Shown here in pieces: positions 302-61,807 of a stretch of 61,807 nt of DNA. Numbering within the stretch: position 1 is the first letter of the stretch; each line of letters opens with the position of its first letter. The stretch comes from a virus: IMG/VR virus record IMGVR_UViG_3300018025_000004, positions 1 through 61,807 of that record. One strand, written 5' to 3'. Both the position numbers and the translations under genes were made by a program. A model generated the notes under the pieces. That model was not told where the DNA came from and searched no databases. It was given only the letters and a program-made list of their open reading frames with translations.

Positions 302-384
302 CCATCACGAGCGTGGGCTGCGTTACGGTTAATGAAATTCGACACGCAAAAGAAAACCCACACTTTCGCGCGGGCTTTCTTTAT

Positions 385-425: not shown

Positions 426-1046
426 TCAGGCGGTCAACGCCTTGGTTCCGGCGATAAAGCCCTCAATGACGTGGCGCGCGTCGAATGTCAAAACCTTGGC
501 GTTTTCGTTTTCAAAGCGTGAGAGCATGGCCGCGAGCTGGCCCATGAACGCGATGACACTGGCATTGTCAGCACATTTCTCAATGCGCACGTTATCAGCG
601 TTGAGCGCGACTTTCGCATCTTTGGTAACCGGCGCGTCAACAGGCGCTTTCACGTGGCGCGCGCCGCCGCGCTTGTCAGGATTGACGATTTCAGCCTGCG
701 AAGCAAGCCTATTCCAATGCTTTTCGGCGGCCCGAACCGTGTCATGTTGTGCTTTCGTGCGATAGCCCGCGACTCCTACTTTCTTGTCAGTGAAGGGCTT
801 GAGGCCAATGATGCTAGCAGCCTCATCCTGCTTAATGCCAGTAGCAGCGCAAAGCCGGCCTTCGACATAAGCGCCACGCGAGTTCGCCCAAACGATAATA
901 TAAGCAGCCTCATCGAGATCGGCAAGCGCATTGGTGATGAGAGCGATGGTAGCAGCACGCGCCACTTCGAAGCGCACGAACGATGCGCCTTCCGTCTTAG
1001 CGGCGGAGAAAACGCGAGCGGCGAGATTGTCAGTGAGAACGGCCAT
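426..1046 (-). CDS. Hypothetical protein, 206 aa; candidate DNA-binding regulator by context only
   Basis: ATG at 1046 is preceded by AGGGG 7 nt upstream. Two identical 29-bp operator-like repeats lie upstream. The gene is divergent from the late operon. No family recognised. Confidence 0.7.
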   Translation of the reverse strand: MAVLTDNLAARVFSAAKTEGASFVRFEVARAATIALITNALADLDEAAYIIVWANSRGAYVEGRLCAATGIKQDEAASIIGLKPFTDKKVGVAGYRTKAQHDTVRAAEKHWNRLASQAEIVNPDKRGGARHVKAPVDAPVTKDAKVALNADNVRIEKCADNASVIAFMGQLAAMLSRFENENAKVLTFDARHVIEGFIAGTKALTA

Positions 1047-33779: not shown

Positions 33780-36758
33780 TCATTTGTCTGTCCCTGTTTT
33801 GGTCATGTCCGTGCCACCGATCACCTTGAGGTCGTGAGCCGACAGGCGTGGAGCCGTAGTTCCTGTGGTTGCGTTGGTCACGGCGGTGGTGATCTCCTCC
33901 GACCGCTTTGCAACCGCCTCATGGTCCATGTTGACCACGTAGGTGTTGACGCGACCACCCTCCAGATACGAGCCCTCGGCGAGGCTCTTGCGCGTCATGC
34001 GTAGGATCACCCCCTGCTCGATCAGCGCGTCAACGAAGTCGCGGCGAGGGTATTTGCCCCGTTGACAGAAGCGGTGGAACGCGTCCGTCGCGAGATAGAG
34101 CAGGTTCTTGTGCTTCTCCAGCCGCGCCTTGACACTCTGGTGCGTGGGCAGCTTGAGGTCCACGAGCACGTTCTTACCCGCATCCACCAGCACCGTGCCA
34201 TGAACGACCTCACCAATGCAGTCGTTCAGCGCGGCGGCGGGAGAGATGTACTCCTCAACCAATATCCCGCGCATACGGGGCAGCATGATGTTGAACGCGT
34301 AGTCACGCACGGCGTTGGGCTCGAACGACAGCAGCCCCAGATGCTTGGCGATGCGCAGCCCCAAGACGGTGCAGCACACAGAGATAGTCCAGAAGCGCTC
34401 GCTGACTTTCAGATTATACTTCTTCTCAGCGTTGGCCACGAGCTGCGTGAGGGTCTGCTTCGCCCAATCATACTGCTCCATCGTGTAGATGATGACGGCT
34501 TCGCCGATATGCCCATAGTTCTCGGCCAAGGTTTGCATCATGATCTCGGCCTGCAAACGGTTCGACGTAGCGGGCGGGATATTAAGCTCGATCACACGCA
34601 TGGAGGTGGCATCGCCGACCTGCGAGCCCTCGGCGAGGAGGGCGTGCAGGCTGCCATTGCCAGTCGAGAGGATCAGGTTCGCCTTCGTGTCGTTCGCCTC
34701 ACCGCTGGAGCCAGTCGGTTTGATAAGTGAGCGGTTCGCTTGCAGGCCCAGACGTGCGCGCGGCTGCGACACTTCGTAAGCGAACGACCGCGCTCCCTCA
34801 GGGAGAAGGCCGGACAACTCATCCACACCGAACGGCAGGCTATGTAGGGCGAACATACACTCGGATCGTGCCTTGGGGGTCGCACCCACGTCCTTGGTGG
34901 CGTTGAGATAGTTGGCTCGCGGGTCGCCGAAGAAACCCATCGCAGCCATCAGCATCGCCGACTTGCCGCCGCCGGAAAGGCCGCTGGCGTGGACGATGGC
35001 CCCATGCTGCCCAGTCATGTGCATGAACAGCGAGCCCAGAGCCGCACCAATATAGAACTGCTGGGGTAGGTATTCCGGGCGGTTGTAAAACTCCATCGCC
35101 GAGATTTGTTCTTCGATGGTGCCGGCCTTGCCCAGACGCAAAATCTCAGCAAAACCGGCGGTGTTGCCGCCGTACTGCACCGGGCGCTTGGAGCCGTCGC
35201 GCATGATCTTGGTGTGGCCGAGCGCGAAGGCCTGATAGTTGTCGATCCAGCCCATGTGTGTGTGCTGGGCTTCTGGGGCGGTGTCCCGCTGGAGCTTCCG
35301 AATGTACGCGACCATGAAAGTCTGCACCAGTTTGATGTTTGCGGCGTCGATGTAGATTGAGAGATCGGCGAGTGCCTGTACGAGCTTGTTCAGATCATAG
35401 ATCACACCCGACGCGAACACCACCATTTTTGGTTTTTCGTTCGGAACGTAAGCGCACCATACGTGCTGGTCGTTGCGTCCGTTGCTGTCGGTCTGGCGGG
35501 TCACCGGAAAGAGCTTGTATTGGAGCACGTTCTGCCAGAAGGTTTTCTCGCCCTTCTCCATGCGGATGGCAACACCCTGCTTGGTCCACGCGTAAGCCTC
35601 GGGTAGCTCCGGCGGTTCCACAGTCAGCTCGGCGTCACCACCCATTGAGAGCTGCATCGCCGGTGGCGGCTCGTTGGTGATCTGCGGCACATACGGCGCA
35701 CGCACCGGGCTGGAGCATACACCCCAGAGCGGGCACTTACCGCATATGTCGTTACCCGACTGGTCGTTCAGTACGTTGCATGTGGTCGGGCCAACGTGAT
35801 GTTTGTCCTGATCGGCGAGTTTCTTGTCCACATACGCAGCGTCATACTCAGGATAGTCCTTCGCGGACAGCTCGTGACACTTCTCCACGCCATCGGAGCA
35901 CTTGCGCACGGCGGCTATCAGCTTGTGCCAGTAGGTATATGTGATGCCGCCACCCACCTCGGCGAAGTGACGGAACTGCCCGCACACCTCGGCGACCTGA
36001 TCGAACGACGGGACTTGCCCGCTAAACTCCATGGTAGTGTTGGACCCGAGACCCCCAGTGTCGCCCGCAGTAACTGTGAACGATGCGTCAATGTCGGTCG
36101 AGATGCCGGCTTCCTCGCACGCATCGTAGAGCGCCTGATACAACTCGTCGGGTTCCGTCGCCACGCCGACGTGCTTCACGACAACAGGGCGAGGGGCCGT
36201 CTGCTTGAAGTTCAATGTGTTGGGGATGCGCAGGACCGACGACTGGTCCTTGATCCGCGCGCGGTCGGCCTTGAAGCCGTGGTGAAGTACCAGCCGGTAC
36301 AGCAGTGTGGCCGAGTACAGCCAGCGTTTTGTCGAGATGTCACGCGTGAACGGCCAGTAGACGTGCACGCCCCCACCGGAGCCCACGAGTGTGGGTTCGG
36401 GGAAGCCGATAGTCTTGCAGAACGCTTGAAGCTCGGAGACGGCCTCACCGCGGGATGCGAACTTGTGGCCGCCGGTGCCAACGTCAAGGTCGAGAAACAG
36501 GCAGCGCGCGCGGGCCATGTTGGTCTGCGCGCGCTTGCCCTTCTTCAAGTTCTCCTTGAGCGTATGGATGCAGAAGTACACGTCAACCGTTTTGCGCAGT
36601 AACTTGGCTTGCTGCACGACCTGCTGGATGTCGGTACGAACGTAGTGTCTATAGCCGGAACACTCTTTACCGTTATCGTCGGTCCACTTGACTTGCACGG
36701 CAAGGCAGTAGTTGCCTTCATCCGGCCACACGGATTGCAGAAATTCCAGCATATTCAT
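33780..36758 (-). CDS. Primase-polymerase (AEP) fused to an SF3/D5-type helicase
   Basis: N-terminal FLDLDVG and SGGGVHVYW prim-pol motifs. Walker A GLSGGGKS at about residue 595. 992 aa. Confidence 0.8.
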   Translation of the reverse strand: MNMLEFLQSVWPDEGNYCLAVQVKWTDDNGKECSGYRHYVRTDIQQVVQQAKLLRKTVDVYFCIHTLKENLKKGKRAQTNMARARCLFLDLDVGTGGHKFASRGEAVSELQAFCKTIGFPEPTLVGSGGGVHVYWPFTRDISTKRWLYSATLLYRLVLHHGFKADRARIKDQSSVLRIPNTLNFKQTAPRPVVVKHVGVATEPDELYQALYDACEEAGISTDIDASFTVTAGDTGGLGSNTTMEFSGQVPSFDQVAEVCGQFRHFAEVGGGITYTYWHKLIAAVRKCSDGVEKCHELSAKDYPEYDAAYVDKKLADQDKHHVGPTTCNVLNDQSGNDICGKCPLWGVCSSPVRAPYVPQITNEPPPAMQLSMGGDAELTVEPPELPEAYAWTKQGVAIRMEKGEKTFWQNVLQYKLFPVTRQTDSNGRNDQHVWCAYVPNEKPKMVVFASGVIYDLNKLVQALADLSIYIDAANIKLVQTFMVAYIRKLQRDTAPEAQHTHMGWIDNYQAFALGHTKIMRDGSKRPVQYGGNTAGFAEILRLGKAGTIEEQISAMEFYNRPEYLPQQFYIGAALGSLFMHMTGQHGAIVHASGLSGGGKSAMLMAAMGFFGDPRANYLNATKDVGATPKARSECMFALHSLPFGVDELSGLLPEGARSFAYEVSQPRARLGLQANRSLIKPTGSSGEANDTKANLILSTGNGSLHALLAEGSQVGDATSMRVIELNIPPATSNRLQAEIMMQTLAENYGHIGEAVIIYTMEQYDWAKQTLTQLVANAEKKYNLKVSERFWTISVCCTVLGLRIAKHLGLLSFEPNAVRDYAFNIMLPRMRGILVEEYISPAAALNDCIGEVVHGTVLVDAGKNVLVDLKLPTHQSVKARLEKHKNLLYLATDAFHRFCQRGKYPRRDFVDALIEQGVILRMTRKSLAEGSYLEGGRVNTYVVNMDHEAVAKRSEEITTAVTNATTGTTAPRLSAHDLKVIGGTDMTKTGTDK

Positions 36759-37523: not shown

Positions 37524-38789
37524 TCAATCGTCGTCCCACTCGCCGAGCAGAGCCTCGACATTCTGGGGGGTCGCAACCGGCTTGACGGGCTTGGCCGGCG
37601 CATCCTCATCGTCCTCCACGACGACGGGCTTCTTCTTCTTGACCACGACCGGCGCATCCTCATCGTCCTCCACGACGACGGGCTTCTTCTTCTTGACCAC
37701 GACCGGCGCATCCTCATCGTCCTCCACGACGACGGGCTTCTTCTTCTTGACCACGACCGGCGCGTCTTCGTCATCCTCGACCGGCGCGGGCTTCTTCTTG
37801 GGCGGCAGAACCGGCGCGTCTTCGTCATCCTCGACCGGCGCGGGCTTCTTCTTGGGCGGCAGAACCGGCGCGTCTTCGTCATCCTCGACCGGGGCCTTGG
37901 GCTTCTTCTTGGGCGGCAGAACCGGCGCGTCTTCGTCATCCTCGACCGGGGCCTTGGGCTTCTTCTGCGCCACAACCGGCGCAGCGGCGGGGGCTTCAAG
38001 CACCTTGTGCCCATCCGCGCCTTCCGGCGACCACGTACCGGACAGCAGCTTGAGGACTTCGGGCGACTTCGACAGCTTGGCGACGATGGCGAGATCAGCC
38101 GGCTCCAACCATTTCTCCGGCGAGAAGATGACCTTGGGATAGTCCGTCTTCGGATCGAACTTGAGCTTGGTCACCAGCGCACCAGTGTGCTTGATGCCTT
38201 TGGTGCGCAGGTATTCCGTATAGTTGTCGAACGCGAACCAGCCGGCAGCCTCCAGCTCGGGGGACTGACCATCGTAGATGGACGTGATCGCGAGCTTCAA
38301 GCGCAGCGGCGTGAAGGACAGATCGTTCGACGGGATGACAGCCACCATACGGTGCTGCGAACAGGCCGTAACCGCCTTGTTGTTGTCCGACACCTTGGAG
38401 CCCTTCTGCGACCACGGACAGGTGTCGCACTTCTTCGACGGCGCATCGACCACCGAGGGGTGCGGCGTAATGCCATCGTCCGACCAGCACGCCGGCTTGC
38501 CGGGCTTGTCCGGGTCATACGCACCCTCGTAATAGGCGCGGCCACGACGGGGCGCATAGCCAAGGATGATGGCGCGGAAGATCGCCGCCGGAACCAGATC
38601 GCCGTCAGCGTCGCGCTTCTCCAGAATGGTCTTCTCGCCATTCAGGTTGATCGCCCACTTTTTGCCACCGTAGGTCAGCGACGGTACGGACTGGCGGTCA
38701 GCGATATTGCTGCCCTCGTCCGAGTTGAAGAAGTCCTGAATGTGCGCCGGGAGTGCCGGTGCTTTGAAGATAGCGAGATCATTTGCCAT
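37524..38789 (-). CDS. Putative ssDNA-binding protein with a repeat linker and an acidic tip
   Basis: Cys cluster CWSDDG..CDTCPWSQKGS. Seven charge-alternating repeats of 18-19 aa. The C-terminus ends ..LLGEWDDD. Confidence 0.45.
   Translation of the reverse strand: MANDLAIFKAPALPAHIQDFFNSDEGSNIADRQSVPSLTYGGKKWAINLNGEKTILEKRDADGDLVPAAIFRAIILGYAPRRGRAYYEGAYDPDKPGKPACWSDDGITPHPSVVDAPSKKCDTCPWSQKGSKVSDNNKAVTACSQHRMVAVIPSNDLSFTPLRLKLAITSIYDGQSPELEAAGWFAFDNYTEYLRTKGIKHTGALVTKLKFDPKTDYPKVIFSPEKWLEPADLAIVAKLSKSPEVLKLLSGTWSPEGADGHKVLEAPAAAPVVAQKKPKAPVEDDEDAPVLPPKKKPKAPVEDDEDAPVLPPKKKPAPVEDDEDAPVLPPKKKPAPVEDDEDAPVVVKKKKPVVVEDDEDAPVVVKKKKPVVVEDDEDAPVVVKKKKPVVVEDDEDAPAKPVKPVATPQNVEALLGEWDDD
37597..37980 (-). 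repeat. Seven tandem 54/57-bp in-frame repeats (three subtypes)
   Basis: Unit starts: A x3 at 37597, 37651, 37705; B x2 at 37759, 37813; C x2 at 37867, 37924. Near-exact at nucleotide level. Confidence 0.9.
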
Positions 38790-40811: not shown

Positions 40812-41237
40812 TTATTTACCCGTAATCAGCAGTGTCGGTTCGGTGAGGGTGCGAGCAATGTTCAGCAGCTCAGCGCCGACCGCGTCAGGCAACTTCTCGC
40901 CCATGGAGGTGTGCACCGTTGCGGTCTCGAACAGCGCCAGCCATTTGGCGAACAGCCCGATGGTCTTTTCGTCCACCACGAACCCGAAACCATCCTCAGC
41001 GTAAATTGACTGGAGATACTGTTTCTGGTTTATGGTCGGTTTGTTTCCGCCGAACTTGGCTTCGACAGCGATGAAGACGCCACGCTTGAGCGCGTTGATG
41101 TCGGACACACCGACCTTGCCGAAGCCGTTGGCCGGCGGCATCCACCAAAACGCACCCCACGCATCCAGCAGCTTCTTGATGTCGTCCTTGACGTGGCGTT
41201 CAGACCCATAGGTCGTGCGTAGCTTGTATGGTTTCAT
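40812..41237 (-). CDS. VRR-NUC domain nuclease
   Basis: GVSDINAL...FIAVEAKFG (D..ExK of the PD-(D/E)XK fold). The pairing with an SNF2 helicase is typical. Confidence 0.7.
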   Translation of the reverse strand: MKPYKLRTTYGSERHVKDDIKKLLDAWGAFWWMPPANGFGKVGVSDINALKRGVFIAVEAKFGGNKPTINQKQYLQSIYAEDGFGFVVDEKTIGLFAKWLALFETATVHTSMGEKLPDAVGAELLNIARTLTEPTLLITGK

Positions 41238-41569
41238 GCTTGATCCCTCCTAATTAACCCACAACCAATCTCGTTCGAGATTGCATCGACAGCCGCTCTA
41301 TACGCGTCATAGACTGGCTCCATACGTTCGACAAACTTAGGCATGAGTAGGTGCCAGTCGGCCGCGTCGAAGTCATCCTGTTCCGGGGTGAACATCGCCG
41401 GAGGACGTTTCGGTATTGTGTCCCAATAGACGAATGTGAATAATCCCGGCTCGTCACGCGTTGCCTTTCGCACGTAGTGACCAACTTCGTCGCAGTGCGT
41501 TCGCCATGCAATCCGTGTGATATACACACCATTCTTGACGAGACGTTCTAGTGCGTCATCCCATGTCAT
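41234..41569 (-). CDS. DUF2829 / Tad2-like domain protein
   Basis: MTWDDALERLVKNGVYITRIAW ... FTPEQDDFDAADWHLL matches the remembered DUF2829 pattern. It carries a ~35-aa C-terminal extension. Confidence 0.5.
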   Translation of the reverse strand: MTWDDALERLVKNGVYITRIAWRTHCDEVGHYVRKATRDEPGLFTFVYWDTIPKRPPAMFTPEQDDFDAADWHLLMPKFVERMEPVYDAYRAAVDAISNEIGCGLIRRDQA

Positions 41570-42265: not shown

Positions 42266-43096
42266 TCAGCCGCCCATGGCCTCAACCAGTTTGTCGATGC
42301 GAGCCTGCAACGCCGGCTCCAGATCGTTCTCGTACAGGGCCGTGCTGGCGAGGTTCAGGACGAGCTTCGCTTCATCCCGGCTCCACTTGGCTGCGACCGG
42401 GGCCGGACGGGGCGTAAGGGCCGCCTGACCCTTCGGCTCGTGCAGGATCGAGTGCTTCTTGGTGGCCTTCGTCTTGCCCTCAGCCGCCGCCGTGGCCACC
42501 GCGTCCTTGAGGATCGTCGTGGCTTCCGTGGCGTGCTCGCGGACAGTCTCAGCAGCGAAGGTCGCCGACACACGCCCCTCCCGAACGAGCTGGTGGACCT
42601 CAGCCGGGGCCGACTGGAAGTCGAGGAGCTGCGCCACGCACGACTGGCTCTTGCCGATCCGCCGCGCCACGTCGGTGATGGACAGACCGAAGGTGAGGGC
42701 GCGCTTCACGAGCTGCCCCTCCTCCAGCATGGTGAGGGCCTTGCCAGAGTTGGACGTGCTCTGCCGCAGCAGCCGGTCCACGTCGTTGATGCCGCGTCCC
42801 TCCGGCACGCAGGGGACGGTCGGGATTTCAAAGCCCTCGGCGATCAGCTCCTTGACCGCAGTCAGGCGGCAGTGCCCAGCGCCGACGAAGACCTCGTCAC
42901 CGACCGAGAAAATCTCCAGCGGGTGGGAGGGCAAGAACCCCACCTCGCGGATGGAGGCCTTGAGATAATCAATGTGCACGCGAGTGTCCGGCGAGGTCAG
43001 ATCGCGTGCGTTGAGGCCCGGCTGGATGTCAATTTCCAACGGGTTAAAATTCAGGAGAGCCGAACGGCTCACCGCCATATCTTTTAAGCTGGCCAT
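42266..43096 (-). CDS. ParB-like nuclease-domain / HTH protein
   Basis: ParB N-domain GAGHCRLTA and HTH ITDVARRIGKSQSCVAQL. No parA partner seen. Confidence 0.65.
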   Translation of the reverse strand: MASLKDMAVSRSALLNFNPLEIDIQPGLNARDLTSPDTRVHIDYLKASIREVGFLPSHPLEIFSVGDEVFVGAGHCRLTAVKELIAEGFEIPTVPCVPEGRGINDVDRLLRQSTSNSGKALTMLEEGQLVKRALTFGLSITDVARRIGKSQSCVAQLLDFQSAPAEVHQLVREGRVSATFAAETVREHATEATTILKDAVATAAAEGKTKATKKHSILHEPKGQAALTPRPAPVAAKWSRDEAKLVLNLASTALYENDLEPALQARIDKLVEAMGG

Positions 43097-43119
43097 GGTT
43101 GCACCTTGGGGATTGAGGT

Positions 43120-43665
43120 TTAGTCGAGGGTGATGCTGAGCGCGCACGCCACCTTGTGCAGGTGCAGCGCTTGAGTGATCGCATCGTCCACGGCGTTGTG
43201 GAACACGCCGGAACGCTCCAGTTTGAGGGTGGGGGCGAGGCTCTTGACCGTGCGGTAGCAGCGGTCATGCCAGAACTTCCACGGTGTTTCGAGACCCAGA
43301 CGCTCGTAGGCGCGGCGCAGGATCACGTTGTCGAAGGTCGAGCCGTTGCCCCAGAGGGGCAGGCTCTTGTCGCCGAACCACATGGCGAGACCCTCCAGCG
43401 CCGACACAATGTCAACGCGGTCGGAGCCGAGCAGCGACGTGCGAGCCTCGTTACGCTCGGCGTCCATCCACCAGAGGACAGTGGCGGGGTCCATGACGCC
43501 GCCGAACTTGTGGGCCGACGCCGGGTCGATGGCGACGTAGAACTTGTCGCGGATGGGGTTCTCGTTGGCCGGGGTGTTGGGGTCGAACTTCACCGCTCCA
43601 ATGGAGAGGATCAAGGCGTCGTTGTTGGTGCCGAATGTTTCGATGTCAACCATAACATGGTTCAT
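43120..43665 (-). CDS. DnaQ-like 3'-5' exonuclease
   Basis: ExoI VDIETFG, ExoII GNGSTFDN, ExoIII HNAVDDA. The start at 43665 lies just downstream of an operator palindrome. Confidence 0.8.
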   Translation of the reverse strand: MNHVMVDIETFGTNNDALILSIGAVKFDPNTPANENPIRDKFYVAIDPASAHKFGGVMDPATVLWWMDAERNEARTSLLGSDRVDIVSALEGLAMWFGDKSLPLWGNGSTFDNVILRRAYERLGLETPWKFWHDRCYRTVKSLAPTLKLERSGVFHNAVDDAITQALHLHKVACALSITLD

Positions 43666-53924: not shown

Positions 53925-55046
53925 TCACACAGTTACATGGATCGTGCGCCCAACGGGTGCCACCACCTCCGTCGTACACAGGACGATGAGGGGGTATGGT
54001 GGCTCCTCCTCCGGCCAAGGCGTATATCCATCGGTGATGAGCACGCACACGATGGGGTTGAACTGCTCAGAGTGCTTGAGCGGCAGGCGCATGTCAGTCC
54101 CGCCCCCGCCCTTGGGGTGCAGCTCCAGATTGTCGCCGGCTTCAAACACCTCCTCCAACGCACACTCCACAGCATCGGCCCAGATGATGCGGATGCGTTC
54201 GGGCTTCAACACGTCGATGATGTAGCCCAGCTCGGCAGCGACACGCGCGAACGTGTCGCCACCAATCGAGCCGGACGTGTCGCCGATCACATGCAGCTCG
54301 CCCATGCACTCACTATGTCGTGAGGGCAGGATGGTCTTGAACCGCCGATTGCGGCGGGACCAGCTTTCGTTGTCCTGCGAAATCTCCAGCATGTATTCCC
54401 GCAGCACCTCCTCCCACGCGATCTGCGGCTGGAGGATGCCGTTGACCATGCGTTCCAGATCGGCAGAGAACTGGCCAGCAAGCCGGGCCTGCGTGGCGGC
54501 CACGGCCACACGGCCATTGATGGTGCGCTCAATTTCAGCCCGCTCAGCGTCCGTCGCAGGCTGGGGAATGAGGTCTCGACCGAGGCCGTCCTCGTTGTTT
54601 TTGTGCTGTCCGGGGTTTTCGGCCTCCTCCTGCCTCAAGATGTCGTAGATGACCTCAGCAGTCATCCCTGCGAAGCGGGGGTCAATGAGGCACCGATCCC
54701 ATAGTTTGATGCCGGCCTTACGGAGCTGCCAGTTGATCGCGTAGTCGCCGGCTTTGTTCCACAGTTCATGGTCTCGCGAGCCCTGCCGCAGGCCGTGCTT
54801 GAGGATGATATGGAACAGCTCATGCAGCAGGACGAAGATCACTACGTCGGTGCTCAGCTCGTTGATGAACTCCGGGTTGATGTATATCTTCTTCATGTCC
54901 GTCGCGGCACGCGGTACAGTCTGCGTCATCTCAAGAGGCGTCGAGAGGATGAGGTTCGCGAAGAACGCATTACGGAATATGATCTTGGATCGTGCGAGCT
55001 GCACCGCTGTCAGTGTGACACGCTCGACTTGCTTGGCAACAGCCAT
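53925..55046 (-). CDS. Zincin (HExxH) plus VWA-domain protein (DUF2201/CobT-like)
   Basis: LLHELFHII metallopeptidase-like motif. MIDAS DxSxS motif in VIGDTSGSIG. SD AGGAG. Confidence 0.7.
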   Translation of the reverse strand: MAVAKQVERVTLTAVQLARSKIIFRNAFFANLILSTPLEMTQTVPRAATDMKKIYINPEFINELSTDVVIFVLLHELFHIILKHGLRQGSRDHELWNKAGDYAINWQLRKAGIKLWDRCLIDPRFAGMTAEVIYDILRQEEAENPGQHKNNEDGLGRDLIPQPATDAERAEIERTINGRVAVAATQARLAGQFSADLERMVNGILQPQIAWEEVLREYMLEISQDNESWSRRNRRFKTILPSRHSECMGELHVIGDTSGSIGGDTFARVAAELGYIIDVLKPERIRIIWADAVECALEEVFEAGDNLELHPKGGGGTDMRLPLKHSEQFNPIVCVLITDGYTPWPEEEPPYPLIVLCTTEVVAPVGRTIHVTV

Positions 55047-55070
55047 GTGGGTTACTCCTGTTGGTTAGTG

Positions 55071-55146
55071 TTTGGGACCACGTATGACCGGCTGCGCCGG
55101 TCATTCTGGTTTGGGACAGTATGTCCCAAACAATCATGTCCCAAAC
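55071..55146. promoter_or_regulatory. 75-bp composite operator element, copy a
   Basis: Order of parts: TTTGGGACC; palindrome ATGACCGGCTGCGCCGGTCAT (55084-55104); TTTGGGACAGTATGTCCCAAA (55110-55130); half-site TGTCCCAAA (55137-55145). Confidence 0.75.
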
Positions 55147-55166
55147 CATTAGTGGTTAGGCGTACA

Positions 55167-55388
55167 TCAAGCCTTGAAGACGCCGTCCCAAGCGAGGGCA
55201 AATGCCCGCGCCTCGAACTCTTGGTCGTGCGGAAACCTGTAGGTGCACCGCATTACACGCACGTCATCCACGGACGTTAGTGGCACCCCATACTTGTCAC
55301 ACCACACAAGAACGTACCATTTCCCGTCGCCCGGACGACGGCGCGAGTTCGGTTTAAGGTATTCAGGCAGACCACGGGGGCTGGGCAT
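55167..55388 (-). CDS. Hypothetical protein, 73 aa
   Basis: Excellent SD AGGAGG 6 nt upstream of ATG 55388. Confidence 0.6.
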   Translation of the reverse strand: MPSPRGLPEYLKPNSRRRPGDGKWYVLVWCDKYGVPLTSVDDVRVMRCTYRFPHDQEFEARAFALAWDGVFKA

Positions 55389-55390
55389 TG

Positions 55391-56434
55391 TTACCTCCTG
55401 AACGTATCCCGGTAGAGCTTGGAGTAATCCATGAACGCCGGGGTGGCGTAGAGGGCCTCGTCTCGCTTGGTGGCGAACTGCCACGCAAGTGCCACGAACT
55501 CCGGGTCCATACGCTTGATATACGTGTGGATGGTCGTAGCGTTGGTCACAGTCATGTCGCCGGCCAGCGCCATGGTGACGGCGTAACGCATCGCCAGCTC
55601 CTCGTCTTTTGGGACCGGCGCAGTAGTCGGGTCTTTCATGATGCGAGGGATATAGTCCTTGAGCGTGGCCCACACATCCGCGAACGCATAGGCTTCGGCA
55701 GCCGGGCCATCGCCGATAGCGCCAGCCATTGCCGCCTGCTTCACCGCATCCGGCGCGTTCGCTTTCCAGAACTTCCACGCTTTCTCAGCGGTGCGCGGCG
55801 TGCTGACTGTCTTGATCGTGGGCTTCGACGGATCGAAGGTGTTCAACAGCTCCTTGCGAAACTGATAGAACGCCAATGCGATGGGCGGCAGCACGCCTTT
55901 CTGCTGCTGATAGTGGCACCAATCATCGACGGATACCACGACCTCGGCATGAACAAAGCGGTTGGCCAGCGGCAGGGGCTGCTTGTTGGTCACGCCCCTG
56001 TCGATCTCGCGGTTACCCGCCGCCACGATGCGCACGTTCTTGCGCAGACGATGCTCGCCAACACGACGGTCGTTCACGAGCTGGTATGCGACCGCAGCCG
56101 TGGCCGCCGACGCCGCGTTAATCTCATCGAGGAATAACCAGATGATCCCCTTATTGGAGAACGCCGGGTTACCGATGAACGGCAGCGTGGCCGGTGCGTA
56201 CCATGTGGTCAGGCTGGTCACTTCGTCCACGCCGGGGAAGCCGCGAAGGTCCACACTGTCGTACTGCGATAGGCGCACGTCAACGAGCACGGTGTCCTCC
56301 GTTTCGTCGGCGAGCTGCGCCATCAGCTCCGACTTGCCGACGCCGAATTGGCCCCAGAGCATGACGGGCTCGTTCTGTTCCAGAGCGACAAAACGAATAA
56401 AGGCTTTGGTTTCGGGGATCGTGAGGCTGTGCAT
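55391..56434 (-). CDS. AAA+ ATPase, MoxR/CobS-like
   Basis: Walker A GQFGVGKS and Walker B WLFLDEIN. SD AGGAG. Confidence 0.8.
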   Translation of the reverse strand: MHSLTIPETKAFIRFVALEQNEPVMLWGQFGVGKSELMAQLADETEDTVLVDVRLSQYDSVDLRGFPGVDEVTSLTTWYAPATLPFIGNPAFSNKGIIWLFLDEINAASAATAAVAYQLVNDRRVGEHRLRKNVRIVAAGNREIDRGVTNKQPLPLANRFVHAEVVVSVDDWCHYQQQKGVLPPIALAFYQFRKELLNTFDPSKPTIKTVSTPRTAEKAWKFWKANAPDAVKQAAMAGAIGDGPAAEAYAFADVWATLKDYIPRIMKDPTTAPVPKDEELAMRYAVTMALAGDMTVTNATTIHTYIKRMDPEFVALAWQFATKRDEALYATPAFMDYSKLYRDTFRR

Positions 56435-56497: not shown

Positions 56498-56815
56498 ATG
56501 GTTGACGAACCGAATGTCGAAGTCGATGCGGCCGTGATCGAAATTACCATCCGGGTCGCTGGCGTCAATGGGCACCAGCCGCTGACGCCGCAGAACGCCG
56601 CCGCCGTGGGCGTTGACCCTGCGGCGGCTCAGCCGGGCAGCGCCTCGGCCAGCGACCAGACCACGGCCGCCGTGGGCGTTGACCCTGCGGCGGCTCAGCC
56701 GGGCAGCGCCTCGGCCAGCGACCAGACCACGGCCACCACGACCGTCCAGCCCAGCGCCGGCCAGAACGCCGCCCAGAACCCCGCCCAGAACCCCGCCCAG
56801 AACCCGGCGGTGTAG
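56498..56815 (+). CDS. Possible plus-strand repeat protein, 105 aa
   Basis: GAGAGGA 9 nt before the ATG. Two 66-bp repeats and three AQNP repeats. Its 3' 121 nt are antisense to the transposase-like ORF. The two frames share wobble positions, so codon bias cannot decide between them. Confidence 0.35.
   Translation: MVDEPNVEVDAAVIEITIRVAGVNGHQPLTPQNAAAVGVDPAAAQPGSASASDQTTAAVGVDPAAAQPGSASASDQTTATTTVQPSAGQNAAQNPAQNPAQNPAV
56600..56805. repeat. 66-bp tandem repeat x2 (56600-56731) and 12-bp GCCCAGAACCCC x3 (56769-56805)
   Basis: Exact nucleotide repeats. Confidence 0.9.
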
Positions 56816-57636
56816 AGGTGCAAGTCTTGACGGCTGACCTGATGGTGTGCGCCGTCAAGACTGCGCTTGCTATTGCCGAAAAAGCCCTCAACGGTGTTCG
56901 TCGTCACGTTTCGGCCAGAACGATAGTCGTAATAGCCATACTCATCGGCAGAATGGTTCACCGTCGAGTGTGATGCAAAATCCTTGCCCGCCTTGGTGTA
57001 GAGCGGGGACTCGTCGGTATTGAGGTGAGCCTCCTCCGACACATGATGCTTTAAAAGTGTGCTGATGGTTTTCCCGTTGACGCGCTCGGCAACCGTAGAC
57101 CGCACATCACCGCCACGTTGTACCAGAGACACCACAGCAATCTTGTTGCCGGTATAGCCACGCCCCTTACCCTTTGCCTTTCCGCCGATATAGGTTTCGT
57201 CGGCCTCGACCTCACCAGTCAGCAACCCGGCAGGATTCGCATCCTTGAGGGCGAACCGGATGCGGTGACAGAGAAAGAGCGCCGTGCGGTAGGAGCCAAG
57301 CTCAAGCTGGCGCTGCAACTGGAGCGCCGAAACCTGCGTCTTGCTGGCACACATCATATAGAACGCGATCAGCCACTTATTCAGCGGGATTTTCGACGCC
57401 TCCATGACGGTGCCGACGGTTACGGTGAAGGTGTCAGTGCATTCGCCACATTTGTAGAGGCCGGGCCGCGTGCCCGTCTTGGCGTTTGCGGAGCGCGCGT
57501 AAATTTTCTCGCAGCTGCCGCAGTGCGGGCAGACCGGGCCATTCGGCCAGCGCACACGCTCGAAATAGGCGCGCGCGGCCTCCTCGGTGGAGAACCGACG
57601 CATGATTTCCATAAGGGTTAGATCAGGATAGATCAT
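56695..57636 (-). mobile_element. IS1595/ISXO2-family transposase-like gene, C-terminus replaced; no IS ends identified
   Basis: Zn-ribbon CPHCGS..CGEC. DDE contexts EADETYIGG, LNTDES, TNTVEGFF. Family similarity stops after ..DLHLY and continues as GFWAGFWAGFW. Start at ATG 57636, behind AAAGAGAG. Confidence 0.7.
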
Positions 57637-57667
57637 TGTCTTACTCTCTTTAGTTGGGTCATGAATG

Positions 57668-57718
57668 TTTGGGACATTCTGGTTTGGGACACGAAAGTTT
57701 GGGACATGGTGTCCCAAG
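57668..57718. promoter_or_regulatory. Operator array: three direct TTTGGGACA half-sites at 15-bp spacing, the last forming a palindrome
   Basis: Half-sites start at 57668, 57683 and 57698. The dyad TTTGGGACATGGTGTCCCAAG spans 57698-57718, 32-82 nt upstream of the transposase-like start. Confidence 0.7.
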
Positions 57719-57820
57719 GTCTTACGCGGTGGCCGCGCATCGTGTCGAGACCACGTTGCAAGTCATGGAGAAGTCTCTTGAGTATGCTGTACCATACCAC
57801 ACCCTAGGGGTGATGTCAAG

Positions 57821-58132
57821 TCATACCCCCCTCCCACGCTCAGCCATTGCGCGTAATATAGGACCGTCAGGCATAGCGAAGCCCGCACTCGCTAAACAAG
57901 CGAGACACTCATGCAGTGAGGCGTCCCGCATCATCAGCGTAGAGACACCGAGTGTACGTGCTAAATGCCAGTGAGGCGCTTTATAGGCCAGACGCAACAC
58001 AACGATTGCATGTTGTGTCCGATTACCCGCACGCGTTGTCTCGCAACACTCAAATACGGTGATAGCCTCACCGGTGTGCGAACTACCGCACGCCCTCCAA
58101 AACTCTACGGTCTCAAAGACTTCCTTGGCCAT
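57821..58132 (-). CDS. Early hypothetical protein, 103 aa
   Basis: ATG 58132 behind AAAGGAGAAAGCG. The upstream extension in the ORF track is a translation of the leader module. Confidence 0.55.
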   Translation of the reverse strand: MAKEVFETVEFWRACGSSHTGEAITVFECCETTRAGNRTQHAIVVLRLAYKAPHWHLARTLGVSTLMMRDASLHECLACLASAGFAMPDGPILRAMAERGRGV

Positions 58133-58213
58133 CGCTTTCTCCTTTGTCACGTTCTCTTTTGTCACGTTCGCCAAACGCCCTTGGGCGTTATGGCTCGGTG
58201 ATGTTCGGTGATG
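58133..58213 (-). promoter_or_regulatory. Hairpin leader module (core 58174-58189) plus two GGTGATGTT(C) units
   Basis: GTCACGTTC.. x2, then CGCCAAACGCCCTTGGGCGTTATGGCTCGGTGATGTTCGGTGATGTT. Confidence 0.7.
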
Positions 58214-58288
58214 TTTGGGACCACGTATGGCCGGCTGCGTCGGTCATTCTGGTTTGGGACAGCATGTCCCGAACAATCATGTCCCAAA
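58214..58288. promoter_or_regulatory. 75-bp composite operator element, copy b
   Basis: Same order and orientation as copy a. The inner palindrome ATGGCCGGCTGCGTCGGTCAT (58227-58247) carries two G.T positions. The dyad lies at 58253-58273. Confidence 0.75.
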
Positions 58289-58326
58289 GATCGCGGCGTA
58301 GTAGTTACTTTCTATTTCCAGCGCGG

Positions 58327-58515
58327 TCATCGGTTGCGCTCGCGGTCAGCCTCAGACGCAGTGCGCGCACGCCGCACACGTTCCCGCCGTGTCAGTTCGG
58401 GGTGGTTATTGTTCAGGCTTGCGCAGACCGTAGGCGCGGTCAACGCTATCGACATGAGAGAGCGTACATTCGTGAGGGCGCGCAAGTCTCCCAACTCCAG
58501 CATGTAAGTCATCAT
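58327..58515 (-). CDS. Early small basic protein, 62 aa (tentative)
   Basis: ATGATG behind GGGAG. Arg-rich C-terminus. The alternative is a 49-codon ORF (58406..58555) that starts right after AAAGAGAGCG. Confidence 0.35.
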   Translation of the reverse strand: MMTYMLELGDLRALTNVRSLMSIALTAPTVCASLNNNHPELTRRERVRRARTASEADRERNR

Positions 58516-58555
58516 CCAAGCTCCCAATTGCAAGTGCTATCGTCTCAAAGCTCAT

Positions 58556-58675
58556 CGCTCTCTTTGATCACGTTCTCTTTTGTCACGTTCGCCAAACGCC
58601 CTTGGGCGTTATGGCTCGGTGATGTTCGGTGATGTTCGGTGATGTTCGGTGATGTTCGGGACACCATGTCCCAAA
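58556..58675 (-). promoter_or_regulatory. Hairpin leader module (core 58595-58610), four 10-bp GGTGATGTTC units and the operator TTCGGGACACCATGTCCCAAA (58655-58675)
   Basis: Exact repeat family. The operator abuts the stop codon of the 232-aa gene. Confidence 0.7.
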
Positions 58676-58677
58676 GG

Positions 58678-59376
58678 TTAGCCAAACAGCCGCGCGAGGA
58701 TCGAGGCGATGACCCCACGCTTGGGCTGCGCGTGCGCCCCACCCATCTCGCCATAGCCGGCCTTGAAGTTCTTGGCGGGGTGGGCGATGAAGTGATCTTG
58801 GATAGTGGGCGCGCGTGAGGGTGATACACCCTGCGCACCATAGGTGGTGAGGCCAAGCAACGAGGCGTTGGAGGCCTCGTTAAAGAACACGTCGGCCACG
58901 ACAGCCTTCTCTTTTTCATCCACGCCGGGGAAGCCGCACGTGTCATCGAGGGGCTGGTCATGGTTACGGTCATGGTTACGGTCAAGAAACTGAGCGTAGA
59001 TGGCCTTGGAAATCGCCATCATGGCCTGCTCGTGCTCAGCGTAGGCACGCTCGTGCCGCGCCAGCCGGGTCTGGAGGTCAGCCGCCGAGCCGGCAGGTAG
59101 GGAGACCCCATAGGCAGGCAGGGAGGGCTGGAGGGGCTCGCCCTCGTCAAACAGGAGCCAGTCCGCTCCGAGGCTCACGGCCAGCGCGATGCAGGCGTTC
59201 AGGTCGTGCTGGAGTAACTGCGATCCCTCATGGACGACCGCCACCATCCAGCCAGTTTCACCGTGCTGGTAGGTCTGCGGAACCGTCACGTCGTTGCAGT
59301 CCAGCGCCAGTTTGGTGAGCGGGGTCAGGTGGCGAGTGGATAGGGCGAGGATGCTCTCAAGGGGTGCGTTGGTCAT
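58678..59376 (-). CDS. Early protein, 232 aa
   Basis: ATG 59376 behind GTGACAAAAGAGAGAATAAAC. No family confirmed. Confidence 0.6.
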   Translation of the reverse strand: MTNAPLESILALSTRHLTPLTKLALDCNDVTVPQTYQHGETGWMVAVVHEGSQLLQHDLNACIALAVSLGADWLLFDEGEPLQPSLPAYGVSLPAGSAADLQTRLARHERAYAEHEQAMMAISKAIYAQFLDRNHDRNHDQPLDDTCGFPGVDEKEKAVVADVFFNEASNASLLGLTTYGAQGVSPSRAPTIQDHFIAHPAKNFKAGYGEMGGAHAQPKRGVIASILARLFG

Positions 59377-59609
59377 GTTTATTCTCTCTTTTGTCACGTT
59401 CTCTTTTGTCACGTTCTCTTTTGTCACGTTCGCCAAACGCCCTTGGGCGTTATGGCTCGGTGATGTTCGGTGATGTTCGGTGATGTTCGGTGATGTTCGG
59501 TGATGTTCTCTTTTGTCACGTTCGCCAAACGCCCTTGGGCGTTATGGCTCGGTGACGCGCGCAAGAGCGCAGGCCTGAGGCCGAGCACGAGCAAGCCACG
59601 AGGATGGGG
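59377..59609 (-). promoter_or_regulatory. Two tandem leader modules (cores 59436-59451, 59528-59543), GTCACGTTCTCTTTT x3, TGATGTTCGG x5 (59461-59508) and the 60-bp outer element (59551-59609)
   Basis: All are exact or near-exact copies of sequences at 58.1-58.7 kb, 60.4-60.7 kb and 1.35-1.47 kb. Confidence 0.75.
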
Positions 59610-59617
59610 CGCAGTAG

Positions 59618-60382
59618 TTATGGGCAGATTATATCGTCGTCGTCATCGTCAGCGTGGATAACCACACCCGAGAACTTCAAGGCTTTGGTTTGGGACGCCT
59701 TGTCCCAAAGCTCGAAGCGGGTCCAGCCGCCACCAGCCCCAAGGGCGGGCTCATGGCGTGGCCGCCAGAAGGCAGTGCCGAGGCCGTACTCGGTGTCGGT
59801 CTCCAGCAGGCGCAGCACATGGTCCTCGGGCTGCTCACCCATGTCGGCAAGGAAGTCTTTGAACTTGTGCCAACGTGGGTGCAGGTAACGCGGCGGGTTA
59901 AAGCGCCGGCTCTCGTCCGCGCCCATACACCGCATCTTGATGAATGTGTATGTGCGGTAAGTCTTGGTCTGGTTCTCGCCAGCGTGGCCGTGGCTCACGT
60001 TGCCATGCAGTGTCATGTCCATGTCAGCCGGCGTGAGTGCAGGTCGCGCTCTGCTTGCCTCAAGGCGGCGCTGCGCAGCGTGCAACACCGGAGGCTCATG
60101 TGTTACTGGCTCAACCAATGGCTGGAGCTTGCGACCGAAGGACGTGGCGCTATGCTCTTTGATCTGGTCAATCTTCACTCTGGAAGTTTCCAGCGCTGTT
60201 GTCCTTGCTTCACGTATTATGCGTTGGGCAGTTTCGCGCTGCTCTCGCTTTGCCTCATGGCGCGCAGCGATCTTGGCCGCGCCCTCGGGCGTATAGACAC
60301 GCGTCTTGTATGTCTTGCGTTTGGGTGGGTGACGTTTGGCGAACGTCCCGTCAGGCTGCTTGACCCAGATCGTCTCGGACAT
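59618..60382 (-). CDS. First early protein, 254 aa, with an RC-x-n-W..F..F..DMG-type putative DNA-binding domain and a poly-Asp tail
   Basis: KTYRTYTFIKMRCMG....RYLHPRWHKFKDFLADMGEQPEDHVL pattern. ATG 60382 behind GTGACAAGAGAGAGAGAGCG. Confidence 0.6.
   Translation of the reverse strand: MSETIWVKQPDGTFAKRHPPKRKTYKTRVYTPEGAAKIAARHEAKREQRETAQRIIREARTTALETSRVKIDQIKEHSATSFGRKLQPLVEPVTHEPPVLHAAQRRLEASRARPALTPADMDMTLHGNVSHGHAGENQTKTYRTYTFIKMRCMGADESRRFNPPRYLHPRWHKFKDFLADMGEQPEDHVLRLLETDTEYGLGTAFWRPRHEPALGAGGGWTRFELWDKASQTKALKFSGVVIHADDDDDDIICP
59689..59709. promoter_or_regulatory. Intragenic operator palindrome TTTGGGACGCCTTGTCCCAAA
   Basis: Lies inside the 254-aa CDS (codons L-W-D-K-A-S-Q-T). 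Confidence 0.6.
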
Positions 60383-60738
60383 GATGTTCGCTCTCTCTCT
60401 CTTGTCACGTTCGCCAAACGCCCTTGGGCGTTATGGCTCGGTGATGTTCGGGACACCATGTCCCAAAGGTTAGCCGAACGCCCTTGGGCGTTATGGCTCG
60501 GTGATGTTCGGTGATGTTCGCTCTTTTGTCACGTTCGCCAAACGCCCTTGGGCGTTATGGCTCGGTGATGTTCGGGACACGATTGTTCGGGACATGCTGT
60601 CCCAAACCAGAATGGCCGGCAGCGCCGGCCATACGTGGTCCCAAAGGTTAGCCGAACGCCCTTGGGCGTTATGGCTCGGTGATGCGCGCAAGAGCGCAGG
60701 CCTGAGGCCGAGCACGAGCAAGCCACGAGGATGTGGGG
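60383..60738 (-). promoter_or_regulatory. Array of four hairpin cores (60417, 60477, 60541, 60655), operator 60447-60467, inverted composite element c (60571-60645) and outer 60-bp element (60679-60738)
   Basis: Densest repeat cluster in the window. No ORF with a plausible start. Confidence 0.75.
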
Positions 60739-60815
60739 ACAGACCCCGACTTACCTATGTACTATACACCACCCCCAAGGCGTTGTCAAGGGGGTCACCC
60801 TCGTGGCTTGCGCGT

Positions 60816-60869
60816 GTCACTTACAGCCGGCGTCGTGGTGTGTGATTGGAAAAACCGTCGTGGTGTTTG
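60816..60869. repeat. Left arm of a 54-bp inverted repeat
   Basis: 48 of 54 positions match the reverse complement of 61681-61734. Confidence 0.85.
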
Positions 60870-61147
60870 TGTTTTGAAAATGTCCTCGCTACATAAGGAC
60901 TTAGACGTGCTCGTGATGGTTATGGTCGAGTGCTGTTTTATGTAGATGCGCACCCCCAAGTGGTTGCAATCACACACTAATTTTTTTACGAATTTACACT
61001 TGTGGTTACATATGGATTCGCAATGGTCGGGTCGCGGATTTCTGTAAGTGATTGAATTGATTTGGTTTATTCGGTTTATGGCAGAAATGTCCTCACTTTC
61101 AAGTATACACCCCCCTATAGGGCTTTTTTATGCGGGTCACACACACA

Positions 61148-61290
61148 CCACGACGTTAATTCTTTGTATCGTCCACGACGTTAATTCTTTGTATCGTCCA
61201 CGACGTTAATTCTTTGTATCGTCCACGACGTTAATTCTTTGTATCGTCCACGACGTTAATTCTTTGTATCGTCCACGACGTTAATTCTTT
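61148..61290 (+). repeat. 25-bp iteron CCACGACGTTAATTCTTTGTATCGT, 5.7 tandem copies
   Basis: Exact copies start at 61148, 61173, 61198, 61223 and 61248; a partial copy starts at 61273. Confidence 0.95.
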
Positions 61291-61308
61291 GGGACACGGT
61301 GGTCCAAA
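61288..61308. promoter_or_regulatory. Operator-like dyad TTTGGGACACGGTGGTCCAAA fused to the last iteron
   Basis: Matches the reverse complement of the 195-215 site apart from one position. The CGACGTTAATTC flank is in direct orientation at both sites. Confidence 0.6.
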
Positions 61309-61680
61309 CACGTATTACGAGCGTGGTGTGTGTTGATGGTTACGTTACCAGCAGCTTCTCACGTGGAAAAAAAAGCTGAATTACCCGACCAAAAGTGGAT
61401 TTTTTGCCAAAAACGCGTTGCCCCAGGTGGTTAAACAGCACGAACAACAAAATTTTGTATATCTCTCTCTCCCTAAAAGACTGATATATATATATATAAC
61501 AACTAATACGAACAGGATTTTTTGTTTTCCCCCAAAAACACTGGGGAAACCGCCTACATAGATAACCTGAAGTTTTGGTCGTGTTTTGTGTTTTTTATGT
61601 CCTTTTGGGGGGTCAAAAAACACGTTTTGGCGGCGTTACATAGGTAATTAAAATATCGCGCGTCGTGGACGTTGTGAAAT

Positions 61681-61734
61681 CAAACACCACGACAGTTTTT
61701 CCAATCACGTATTACGACGCCGGCTGTAAGTGAC
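61681..61734. repeat. Right arm of the 54-bp inverted repeat
   Basis: See 60816-60869. It overlaps the terminal 79-bp unit family. Confidence 0.85.
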
Positions 61735-61807
61735 TTAGCGCGGCTCGTCGTGGTGTGTGTATCCACCACGACAGTTTTTCCAATCACGTATTACGACGCC
61801 GGCTGTA
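61686..61807. repeat. Terminal 79-bp unit copies (partial 61686-61740, then 61741-61807 = nt 1-67)
   Basis: Exact identity with the left end of the window. Confidence 0.9.

Follow-up and report, generated by a model that had tools for sequence, protein, structure and literature searches.

The AT-rich island at positions 60816-61734 of the virus record IMGVR_UViG_3300018025_000004 raises the question of what function is served by a non-coding segment that is bracketed by long inverted repeats and surrounded by copies of one short box. The window, i.e. the whole stretch of DNA analysed here (61,807 nucleotides), is a complete phage genome of 61.8 kb with a GC content of ~60%. A first-pass annotation, made from the letters alone, had proposed that a replication origin, a packaging or end-formation site and a transcription control region might be superimposed in the island. 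The origin part of this proposal is the best available explanation and has circumstantial support, while its parts concerning the termini, the divergence of the gene arms and a ParB-like binding protein found no support. Judged from sequence, a structural model and analogy, the island is a candidate phage replication origin of the type with iterons and an AT-rich core, served by the phage's own primase-polymerase (PrimPol)-helicase. This reading is held tentatively and falls a little short of being probable.

The 54-bp inverted repeats, the 25-bp iterons, the AT tract and the AT-rich island described in the first-pass annotation were all found where it had placed them. The inverted-repeat arms (60816-60869 and 61681-61734, 54 nt each) lie 811 nt apart and match at 49 of 54 positions (91% complementary). 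According to a binomial estimate, the chance expectation of such a repeat is ~1e-18 to 2e-18 regionally and 3e-15 genome-wide. All five mismatches fall in one box, where CCACGAC stands against TTACGAC. The left arm contains two minus-strand boxes (60832-60838 and 60857-60863) 25 bp apart, and ~280 bp of DNA with 40-43% GC separate it from a plus-strand tandem array (61148-61291) with a period of 25 and 5.8 copies, which are 100% identical and carry six plus boxes. The array is followed by a degenerate operator-type palindrome, TTTGGGACACGGTGGTCCAAA, and then by the motif CACGTATTACGA (61288-61320, plus strand). The AT-rich core, proposed as the unwinding element, extends over 61330-61660 and includes an (AT)7.5 tract at 61484-61498.

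The GC content of ~60850-61650 is 0.30-0.46, compared with ~0.60 for the genome. By nearest-neighbour energy, the least stable window of the genome lies inside the island at each of the lengths 60, 100, 200, 400 and 800 bp. The 800-bp minimum (60857-61656) has -1.322 kcal/mol per bp; the genome mean is -1.544 (standard deviation 0.039), a distance of 5.7 standard deviations, and the 60-bp minimum (61449-61508, GC 0.22) is situated in the core.

To the right of the core, two to three 79-bp units are arranged in tandem on the plus strand. Each consists of a hairpin formed by a dyad of a minus and a plus box, a T-run, a further plus box and CACGTATTACGA, a second island-specific motif that is thereby present on either side of the AT core. 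In the first, degenerate unit (61661-61739), which contains the right arm, the minus box is at 61662 and the further plus box (61687) is the plus arm of the dyad itself. The second unit (61740-61807) is cut by the window end and has its dyad hairpin at 61747-61772, followed by AGTTTTT (hairpin z = -3.6). The same unit is continued at 1-79, followed by a partial unit at 80-125, with dyad hairpins at 7-32 and 86-111. Further boxes were found on the plus strand within 126-301, at 130, 180 (one mismatch), 222 and 266 (one mismatch), and two of them are fused to palindromes (195-215 and 281-301). This last region is conserved in relatives in which the neighbouring 206-aa protein is 87-90% identical. 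Altogether, the non-coding stretch of ~1.3 kb runs from the early promoter (60789) through the window ends to a terminator at ~345, and the island forms its core. No credible open reading frame was recognized in the island, and tRNA and Rfam scans revealed no tRNA or Rfam RNA in it.

The word CCACGAC occurs 49 times in the genome against 15.5 +/- 4 expected, and 22 of the 49 fall in 60832-61807 plus 1-228. The extended box CACACCACGACG, an exact 12-mer, has eight occurrences in the genome, every one of them in the island region. About 18 copies of the box (CACA)CCACGAC(G), most of which keep a 25-bp register, flank the most easily melted DNA of the genome: to the left of the core lie the plus boxes at 61148-61279 (two to six depending on the assembly), and to the right the minus box at 61662 and the box dyads. 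The 54-nt inverted repeat is made up of an outer pair of two-box modules. The boxes are asymmetric, are absent from the other promoters and intergenic modules of the phage, and in three cases are fused to operator-type palindromes. These counts agree with the earlier claim that the CCACGAC core recurs in the inverted repeats, in the 79-bp units at the window ends and at 130-283. No comparable AT-rich, repeat-bearing site was found elsewhere in the genome or beside the helicase gene. A blastn search with the island against phages and plasmids gave no match, and when viral and metagenome contigs were scanned for exact 19-mers of the island, the sole match was one unrelated coding sequence, found three times.

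The position of the island near the window ends had been taken as contiguity with a terminal redundancy. By exact-protein look-up, 12 other contigs were recognized as the same phage, and six independent assemblies (L025-L030) are contiguous and collinear across the window ends. The island region is internal in the NCBI contig L025, the ends of which map to a tandem repeat at ~37.8 kb; the ends of the ENA contigs L026 and L027 are at 58.3 and 59.6 kb, in repeated early-arm modules. Since the contigs read through the window ends and terminate at other repeats, the genome assembles as a circle that is broken at whichever repeat stops the assembler. The window ends share exactly 67 nt (61740 onward equals 1-67), which are part of the 79-bp units; what looks like a terminal repeat is an artefact of assembly within a tandem repeat, and the end annotation of the genome is corrected accordingly. 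The packaging or end-formation role once suggested for the island finds no support, nothing tying it to physical termini or packaging.

The same assemblies differ in repeat number. In five others the array has 1.8 copies (two boxes) and there is one 79-bp unit fewer, and L028 matches the window in its 79-bp units. The difference between two and six boxes could be either a real length polymorphism or a collapse of perfect repeats by the assembler; the assemblies with fewer boxes do resolve four versus five copies in another array. The array of 5.8 copies is probably a recent slippage expansion from a two-box state and not a fixed requirement.

The proposed initiator is a 992-aa protein encoded at 33780-36758 on the minus strand, at the far end of the early arm, in which an N-terminal primase-polymerase is fused to a helicase resembling Cch of the staphylococcal cassette chromosome mec (SCCmec) and Rep of Staphylococcus aureus pathogenicity islands (SaPIs). 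Its structure was modelled with 28 homologues (predicted local distance difference test score, pLDDT, 79.7). The best PDB matches of the model were SCCmec Cch (5dgk, E = 1e-18, target TM-score 0.64) and SaPIbov1 Rep (8tch, E = 6.5e-18), and its N-terminus matched primase-polymerases of the archaeo-eukaryotic primase (AEP) superfamily. The sequence agrees with the fold through the Pfam family DUF927 and a weak match to 5dgk. At the C-terminus of the model, residues 840-945 form a helix-helix-beta-hairpin module, which would fit the winged-helix domain that SaPI Reps use for reading iterons. SaPI Rep has been reported as a self-loading initiator helicase that binds and melts short iterons flanking an AT-rich core without a loader (PMC9371898). 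At least 585 relatives of the PrimPol-helicase were found in one viral collection.

Related phages were recovered by TerL-based searches (56-69% identity), TerL being the large terminase subunit. The gene of the 206-aa protein (426-1046, minus strand) represents an orphan family that keeps the same reversed position beside the island in L003, L009, L011/L018, L043 and L046. Immediately downstream of the homologue of this gene, L003, L009, L011 and L018 have the least stable DNA of their locus; in L043 and L046, the equivalent place is occupied by a gap of 800-880 nt with no called gene, in which the lineage's repeats are found. L008 departs from this pattern: it has the homologue, but its least stable DNA is on the other side of the gene. 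The arrangement is seen directly in L003, where the AT-rich island stands between an early promoter (TTGACA..TATACT) and the terminator of the reversed gene and one box abuts the -35 element.

The boxes themselves differ from lineage to lineage. In L003 and L043, CATGATCTGATGC and GATCGGGTGCTGAA boxes occur in both orientations; there is also a 44-bp duplication in tandem, and the flanking palindromes are separated by 820 bp. In L011, L018 and L046, the boxes are of the CTAGTC type and belong to nested inverted repeats with a common centre. The nearest isolate, Pseudomonas phage Rollin, is distant (identity of TerL 42%, capsid 44%, helicase 24%); it encodes a PrimPol-helicase homologue and has nested inverted repeats centred near position 480 with box families of its own. 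Island-specific 8-mers in both orientations were found in the window, L003, L011 and Rollin. A short-word blastn comparison between the islands of the relatives detected no common primary sequence. Islands without common sequence are the pattern expected if an origin co-evolves with its initiator, and conserved architecture combined with lineage-specific boxes is the signature of a cis site co-evolving with a specific binding protein.

As a separate observation, the islands of L011 (6291-6666) and L046 (1686-2053) contain quasi-palindromes of ~370 bp, the outer ends of which are conserved (TACTTGCTAGTC). Their inner arms differ between the two phages while being complementary within each, which points to concerted evolution or to selection on symmetry itself.

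An origin at this site is supported by the boxes being enriched and confined to the region, by the island being the least stable DNA of the genome and by the region being non-coding. It is further supported by the boxes flanking the core in opposite orientations, as at SaPI origins, by the resemblance of the PrimPol-helicase to Cch and SaPI Rep, and by the syntenic islands of the relatives. The mechanism may be envisaged as follows. A phage-encoded sequence-specific protein would bind the boxes, the likeliest binder being the C-terminal domain of the 992-aa PrimPol-helicase. Once assembled on both flanks, the protein would melt the core with its (AT)n tract, enter it as a self-loaded helicase and prime by means of its own PrimPol domain, after which the family A DNA polymerase (PolA) could extend the primers. 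The early transcription start has two boxes upstream of it, at distances of 81 and 106 bp, and through them the occupancy by the initiator might be coupled to early transcription. It is a long shot that one box-binding protein organizes the entire 1.3 kb, firing the origin, shutting off the early promoter and setting a concatemer-processing site in the dyads of the 79-bp units, with the number of boxes and units (2 vs 6 and 2 vs 3) tuning the timing of replication.

Several observations weigh against an origin served by this helicase. The helicase gene is ~24 kb from the island, whereas SaPI origins lie directly downstream of rep, and there is no intergenic space downstream of the gene. A low-GC spot was seen ~1.5 kb upstream of the gene at many distant PrimPol-helicase loci; no repeats were found in it, and these loci gave no gene-adjacent origin signal. 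Since the copies of the array are 100% identical and their number varies from two to six between assemblies, most of its 'iterons' are probably recent and dispensable. DnaA boxes (TTATCCACA) have 16 matches in the genome at no more than one mismatch, none of them in the island. A GC-skew calculation, proposed earlier as a check, gave a small upward drift with no turning point or inflection at the island and is uninformative. Boxes around a bendable AT-rich core also fit packaging-recognition sites and large regulatory nucleoprotein complexes.

In addition, there are three further candidate box binders, namely the 206-aa orphan protein, the first early protein and the small terminase subunit (TerS). 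The 206-aa protein had no Pfam, PHROG or PDB match, either alone or as a family profile, and its AlphaFold2 model was poor (pLDDT 54). The first early gene (59618-60382, minus strand) encodes a 254-aa protein, one domain of which recurs in the product of the first early gene of L043; to judge from its motif, this may be an AP2/HNH-associated DNA-binding domain. A direct search of viral contigs found no relatives of these two flanking proteins.

The reading of the island as a packaging-recognition site or as the physical ends, with the boxes binding TerS or flanking a concatemer junction or terminal repeat, is unlikely. Boxes on either side of a central region are typical of pac sites too, and the island is located between two convergently organized arms, where several terminal-repeat podophages have their ends. 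Both the window and the Rollin record begin within their islands. TerL is distantly related to that of the headful packager Mx8, and a pac site must therefore exist somewhere in the genome. However, the contigs of this phage cross the window ends and break at the other repeats (~37.8, 58.3 and 59.6 kb), the 79-bp units account for the 67-nt overlap, and in the relatives the contigs continue beyond the island before they stop. The usual location of pac and cos sites is in or directly upstream of terS, while here the TerS gene (1801-2256) is ~2.2 kb from the island, with boxes, a terminator and a gene on the opposite strand in between.

Near the terminase genes, a 16-bp array of 5.1 copies of GTCACTCCACCCGCGC (2258-2338) fills the gap between the end of TerS (2256) and the likely ATG of TerL (~2396). 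It has four or five copies in the other assemblies of the phage and was not found in L002, in which TerL is 98% identical, nor in distant relatives. This array could be a terminase-related cis site or plain slippage.

An explanation by transcription control is likewise improbable, at about the same level. According to it, a phage regulator bound to the boxes silences or activates the early promoter and insulates divergent units, the AT-rich DNA serving as a bendable target similar to an upstream element or an H-NS site, with no role in replication. The left arm begins 27 bp from the -35 element of a near-consensus, sigma-70-like early-arm promoter on the minus strand (60761-60789, TTGACA-17-TATAGT, 11 of 12 matches), and the box of L003 that adjoins a -35 element speaks for the same function. 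The genome is rich in regulatory repeats, including palindromes at 14 sites, 10-bp tandem repeats and hairpin modules; the three boxes joined to operator-type palindromes fit in here, and the box dyads with their T-run resemble plus-strand terminators. But 18 sites over 1.3 kb, most of them far from promoters, are more than such control needs, and the boxes, unlike the palindromes and hairpin modules, do not recur at the phage's other promoters or intergenic modules. The extreme stability minimum of the island is also left unexplained.

The statement that the island sits exactly where the early and late arms diverge holds on one side only: the early promoter adjoins it, while the late arm starts at ~1.3-1.6 kb. 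Further boxes, the terminator and the conserved reversed gene of the 206-aa protein stand between the two. The intrinsic terminator of this gene (345-378, minus strand) is the right limit of the non-coding region and shows compensatory stem changes in relatives.

Other control elements were noticed along the two arms. A leader of ~90 nt (CATCCTCGTGGCTTGCTCGTGCTCGGCCTCAGGCCTGCGCTCTTGCGCGC ... GCCATAACGCCCAAGGGCGTT) is present in three copies, all oriented with transcription, at 60650-60735 and 59520-59605 on the minus strand and at 1345-1450 on the plus strand. In the early arm, a -10-like hexamer (TATAGT, TATAAT) precedes each of the two copies by 25-29 nt, and nothing more than a weak TTATAC immediately precedes the copy in the late arm. 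Possibly the leader acts as a regulatory RNA once transcribed, e.g. as an antitermination or processing element. Just upstream of TerS, a strong intrinsic terminator on the plus strand, consisting of a 14-bp stem at 1669-1700 and then TGTTTTTGC, stands no more than ~60 nt beyond a promoter-like TTGACC-17-TACCAT at 1581-1609 (whole feature 1581-1710). This pair resembles PR'/tR' of phage lambda, which suggests by analogy that the late arm is controlled by antitermination.

A non-autonomous mobile element of the kind known as miniature inverted-repeat transposable elements, or an invertible segment, bounded in either case by the 54-nt repeats, is very improbable. Long near-perfect inverted repeats around an 811-bp non-coding segment are suggestive of it, and a gene of an IS1595-family transposase (56695-57717) is 3 kb away. 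The flanks TTGCGCGT and TTAGCGCG do not form a direct repeat, so that no clean target-site duplication is seen, and the right arm is merely part of a tandem 79-bp unit. No second copy was found in the genome or in phage, plasmid, viral-contig and metagenome collections, and no inverted form of the 811-bp segment exists among the five assemblies spanning the site, all of which carry it in the same orientation. No serine or tyrosine recombinase was detected among the proteins scanned, and the relatives carry an equivalent island in the same position. The transposase is of the DDE type and is encoded on the minus strand of the early arm (ISXO2-like domain, E = 2e-26, plus a zinc ribbon); its gene is also present in the other assemblies of the phage. 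In the surroundings of this gene, no terminal inverted repeats bounding it and none like the island arms were found.

A partition or centromere-like site for the ParB-like protein, implying a plasmid-prophage life style, deserves hardly any weight: the phage does encode a ParB/KorB protein with a helix-turn-helix (HTH) and some plasmid centromeres are tandem iteron arrays, but ParB-type proteins bind palindromes, for which a 21-bp palindrome with 14 sites offers a better target, the boxes are asymmetric, and the scanned proteins, in which no ParA, integrase or repressor was detected, make up a virulent-looking gene content.

The palindrome in question, TTYGGGACAnnnTGTCCCRAA (14 sites vs 0.2 expected), is plausibly the operator for the ParB/KorB-like protein encoded at 42266-43147. 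The earlier suggestion that this protein binds the iterons is unlikely, the separate palindrome family being the more natural target of the ParB/KorB type. The palindrome also enters into a composite module before promoter-proximal genes of the early arm, where it is combined with one to five tandem copies of ACATCACCGA, the hairpin AACGCCCAAGGGCGTT and one to three copies of AAGAGAACGTGACAA directly before the start codon. The hairpin has 10 sites vs 0.03 expected. These elements are located in 57660-60700 and at 195, 281, 1078, 1185, 51800 and 55110, and in L003 and L043 the palindrome is altered to TTTGAGACnnCGTCTCAAA.

Comparison with known systems returns to the island as a candidate origin. 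At SaPI origins, which are situated immediately downstream of rep, a central AT-rich region is surrounded by 6-12 short iterons; each side has two or more, and the two sides point in opposite directions (PMC9371898). The island resembles them in having short boxes of opposite orientation on both sides of an AT core, and it is the sole such place in the phage genome. The initiator of SaPIs is itself the helicase, fused to or paired with a primase, and Cch and Rep are the best structural matches of the 992-aa protein. The box core is longer (7 nt, or 12 nt in the extended form, vs 5-6 nt in SaPIs), and ~18 boxes are spread over 1.3 kb vs 6-12 over a much shorter span. The 25-bp tandem array, the 79-bp tandem units and the 54-nt inverted repeat are differences as well. 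Finally, the element belongs to a 62-kb phage with virulent-looking gene content and not to a satellite island, and binding of the boxes is predicted here.

The ori of phage lambda likewise has tandem iterons with a period of ~20-25 bp beside an AT-rich unwinding region and a strong early promoter nearby. It is located inside the initiator gene O and has four iterons on one side only, host DnaB being delivered by the P protein. The complexes of O with its iterons have been reviewed (PMC7466680). In contrast to the lambda ori, the island is intergenic and two-sided, and the phage supplies its own helicase-primase.

In the satellite phage P4, the alpha protein acts as primase, helicase and initiator and reads short iterons in two separate clusters, one of which consists of long direct repeats with inverted iterons. 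One multifunctional protein of this kind (a candidate in the present phage) and short iterons in separate clusters are common to both systems. However, the primase and helicase lineage of P4 alpha is a different one, and P4 ori and crr are 4.5 kb apart, whereas the clusters described here adjoin one AT-rich core. Iteron plasmids (P1 oriR, F, R6K, pPS10, RK2) similarly use the same box as direct repeats and as inverted dyads with an adjoining AT-rich region; unlike them, the phage showed no initiator of the Rep family (winged-helix RepA type), no DnaA boxes at the site and no adjacent rep gene with an operator dyad. The pac sites of P1 and SPP1 and the short-repeat arrays beside the T7 terminal repeat also place clusters of short boxes on both sides of a central site, but those sites are in or next to the small-terminase gene or at mapped ends, and the island is neither. 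If the island is an origin, it most likely belongs to an ordinary known type found in an uncultivated phage lineage.

With an origin at this position, a concrete cis site would be available for the uncultivated phages of ~60 kb that encode a PrimPol-helicase, a very large family, and the model of a self-loading helicase, hitherto one for staphylococcal satellites and SCC elements, would come to cover phages whose gene content looks virulent. The differing boxes of the window, L003/L043, L011/L046 and Rollin constitute a natural specificity-swap series for finding the domain by which the boxes are read.

A further group of CCACGAC words was noted outside the island region. A 54/108-bp tandem repeat at 37595-37982, within the minus-strand gene 37524-38789, contains six of them with a spacing of 27 bp (37616-37757), ~0.85 kb upstream of the PrimPol-helicase gene; the chance of coincidence is roughly estimated at ~5%. 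Contig L025, an independent assembly, breaks at this repeat. It is a possibility that the six copies form a second cis site similar to P4 crr.

The genes of the phage are organized in two arms. The plus-strand late arm extends to 33.8 kb and includes the genes of TerS, TerL (from ~2350), a portal candidate (4209-6416) placed by position only and lacking a family match, and the capsid protein. The minus-strand early or replication arm runs from 60.4 to 33.8 kb and encodes PolA, an SNF2 helicase, the ParB-HTH protein, ThyX and nucleases. Within it, a MoxR-like AAA_5 ATPase (weak match, E = 2e-5) is encoded beside a DUF2201 metallopeptidase/VWA-like protein at 53925-56434 (minus strand), a pair that is unusual in a phage early region. 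The protein encoded at 41234-41569 has a weak match (E = 8e-5, under the Pfam cut-off) to a Tad2-like domain of Thoeris anti-defence. In the late arm, a 2100-aa protein (11362-17664, plus strand) had no Pfam or PHROG match. Distant matches of the capsid protein include Pectobacterium, Vibrio and Acinetobacter phages, which are presumably N4-like, and it is conceivable that the 2100-aa protein is a giant virion protein, possibly an ejected enzyme.

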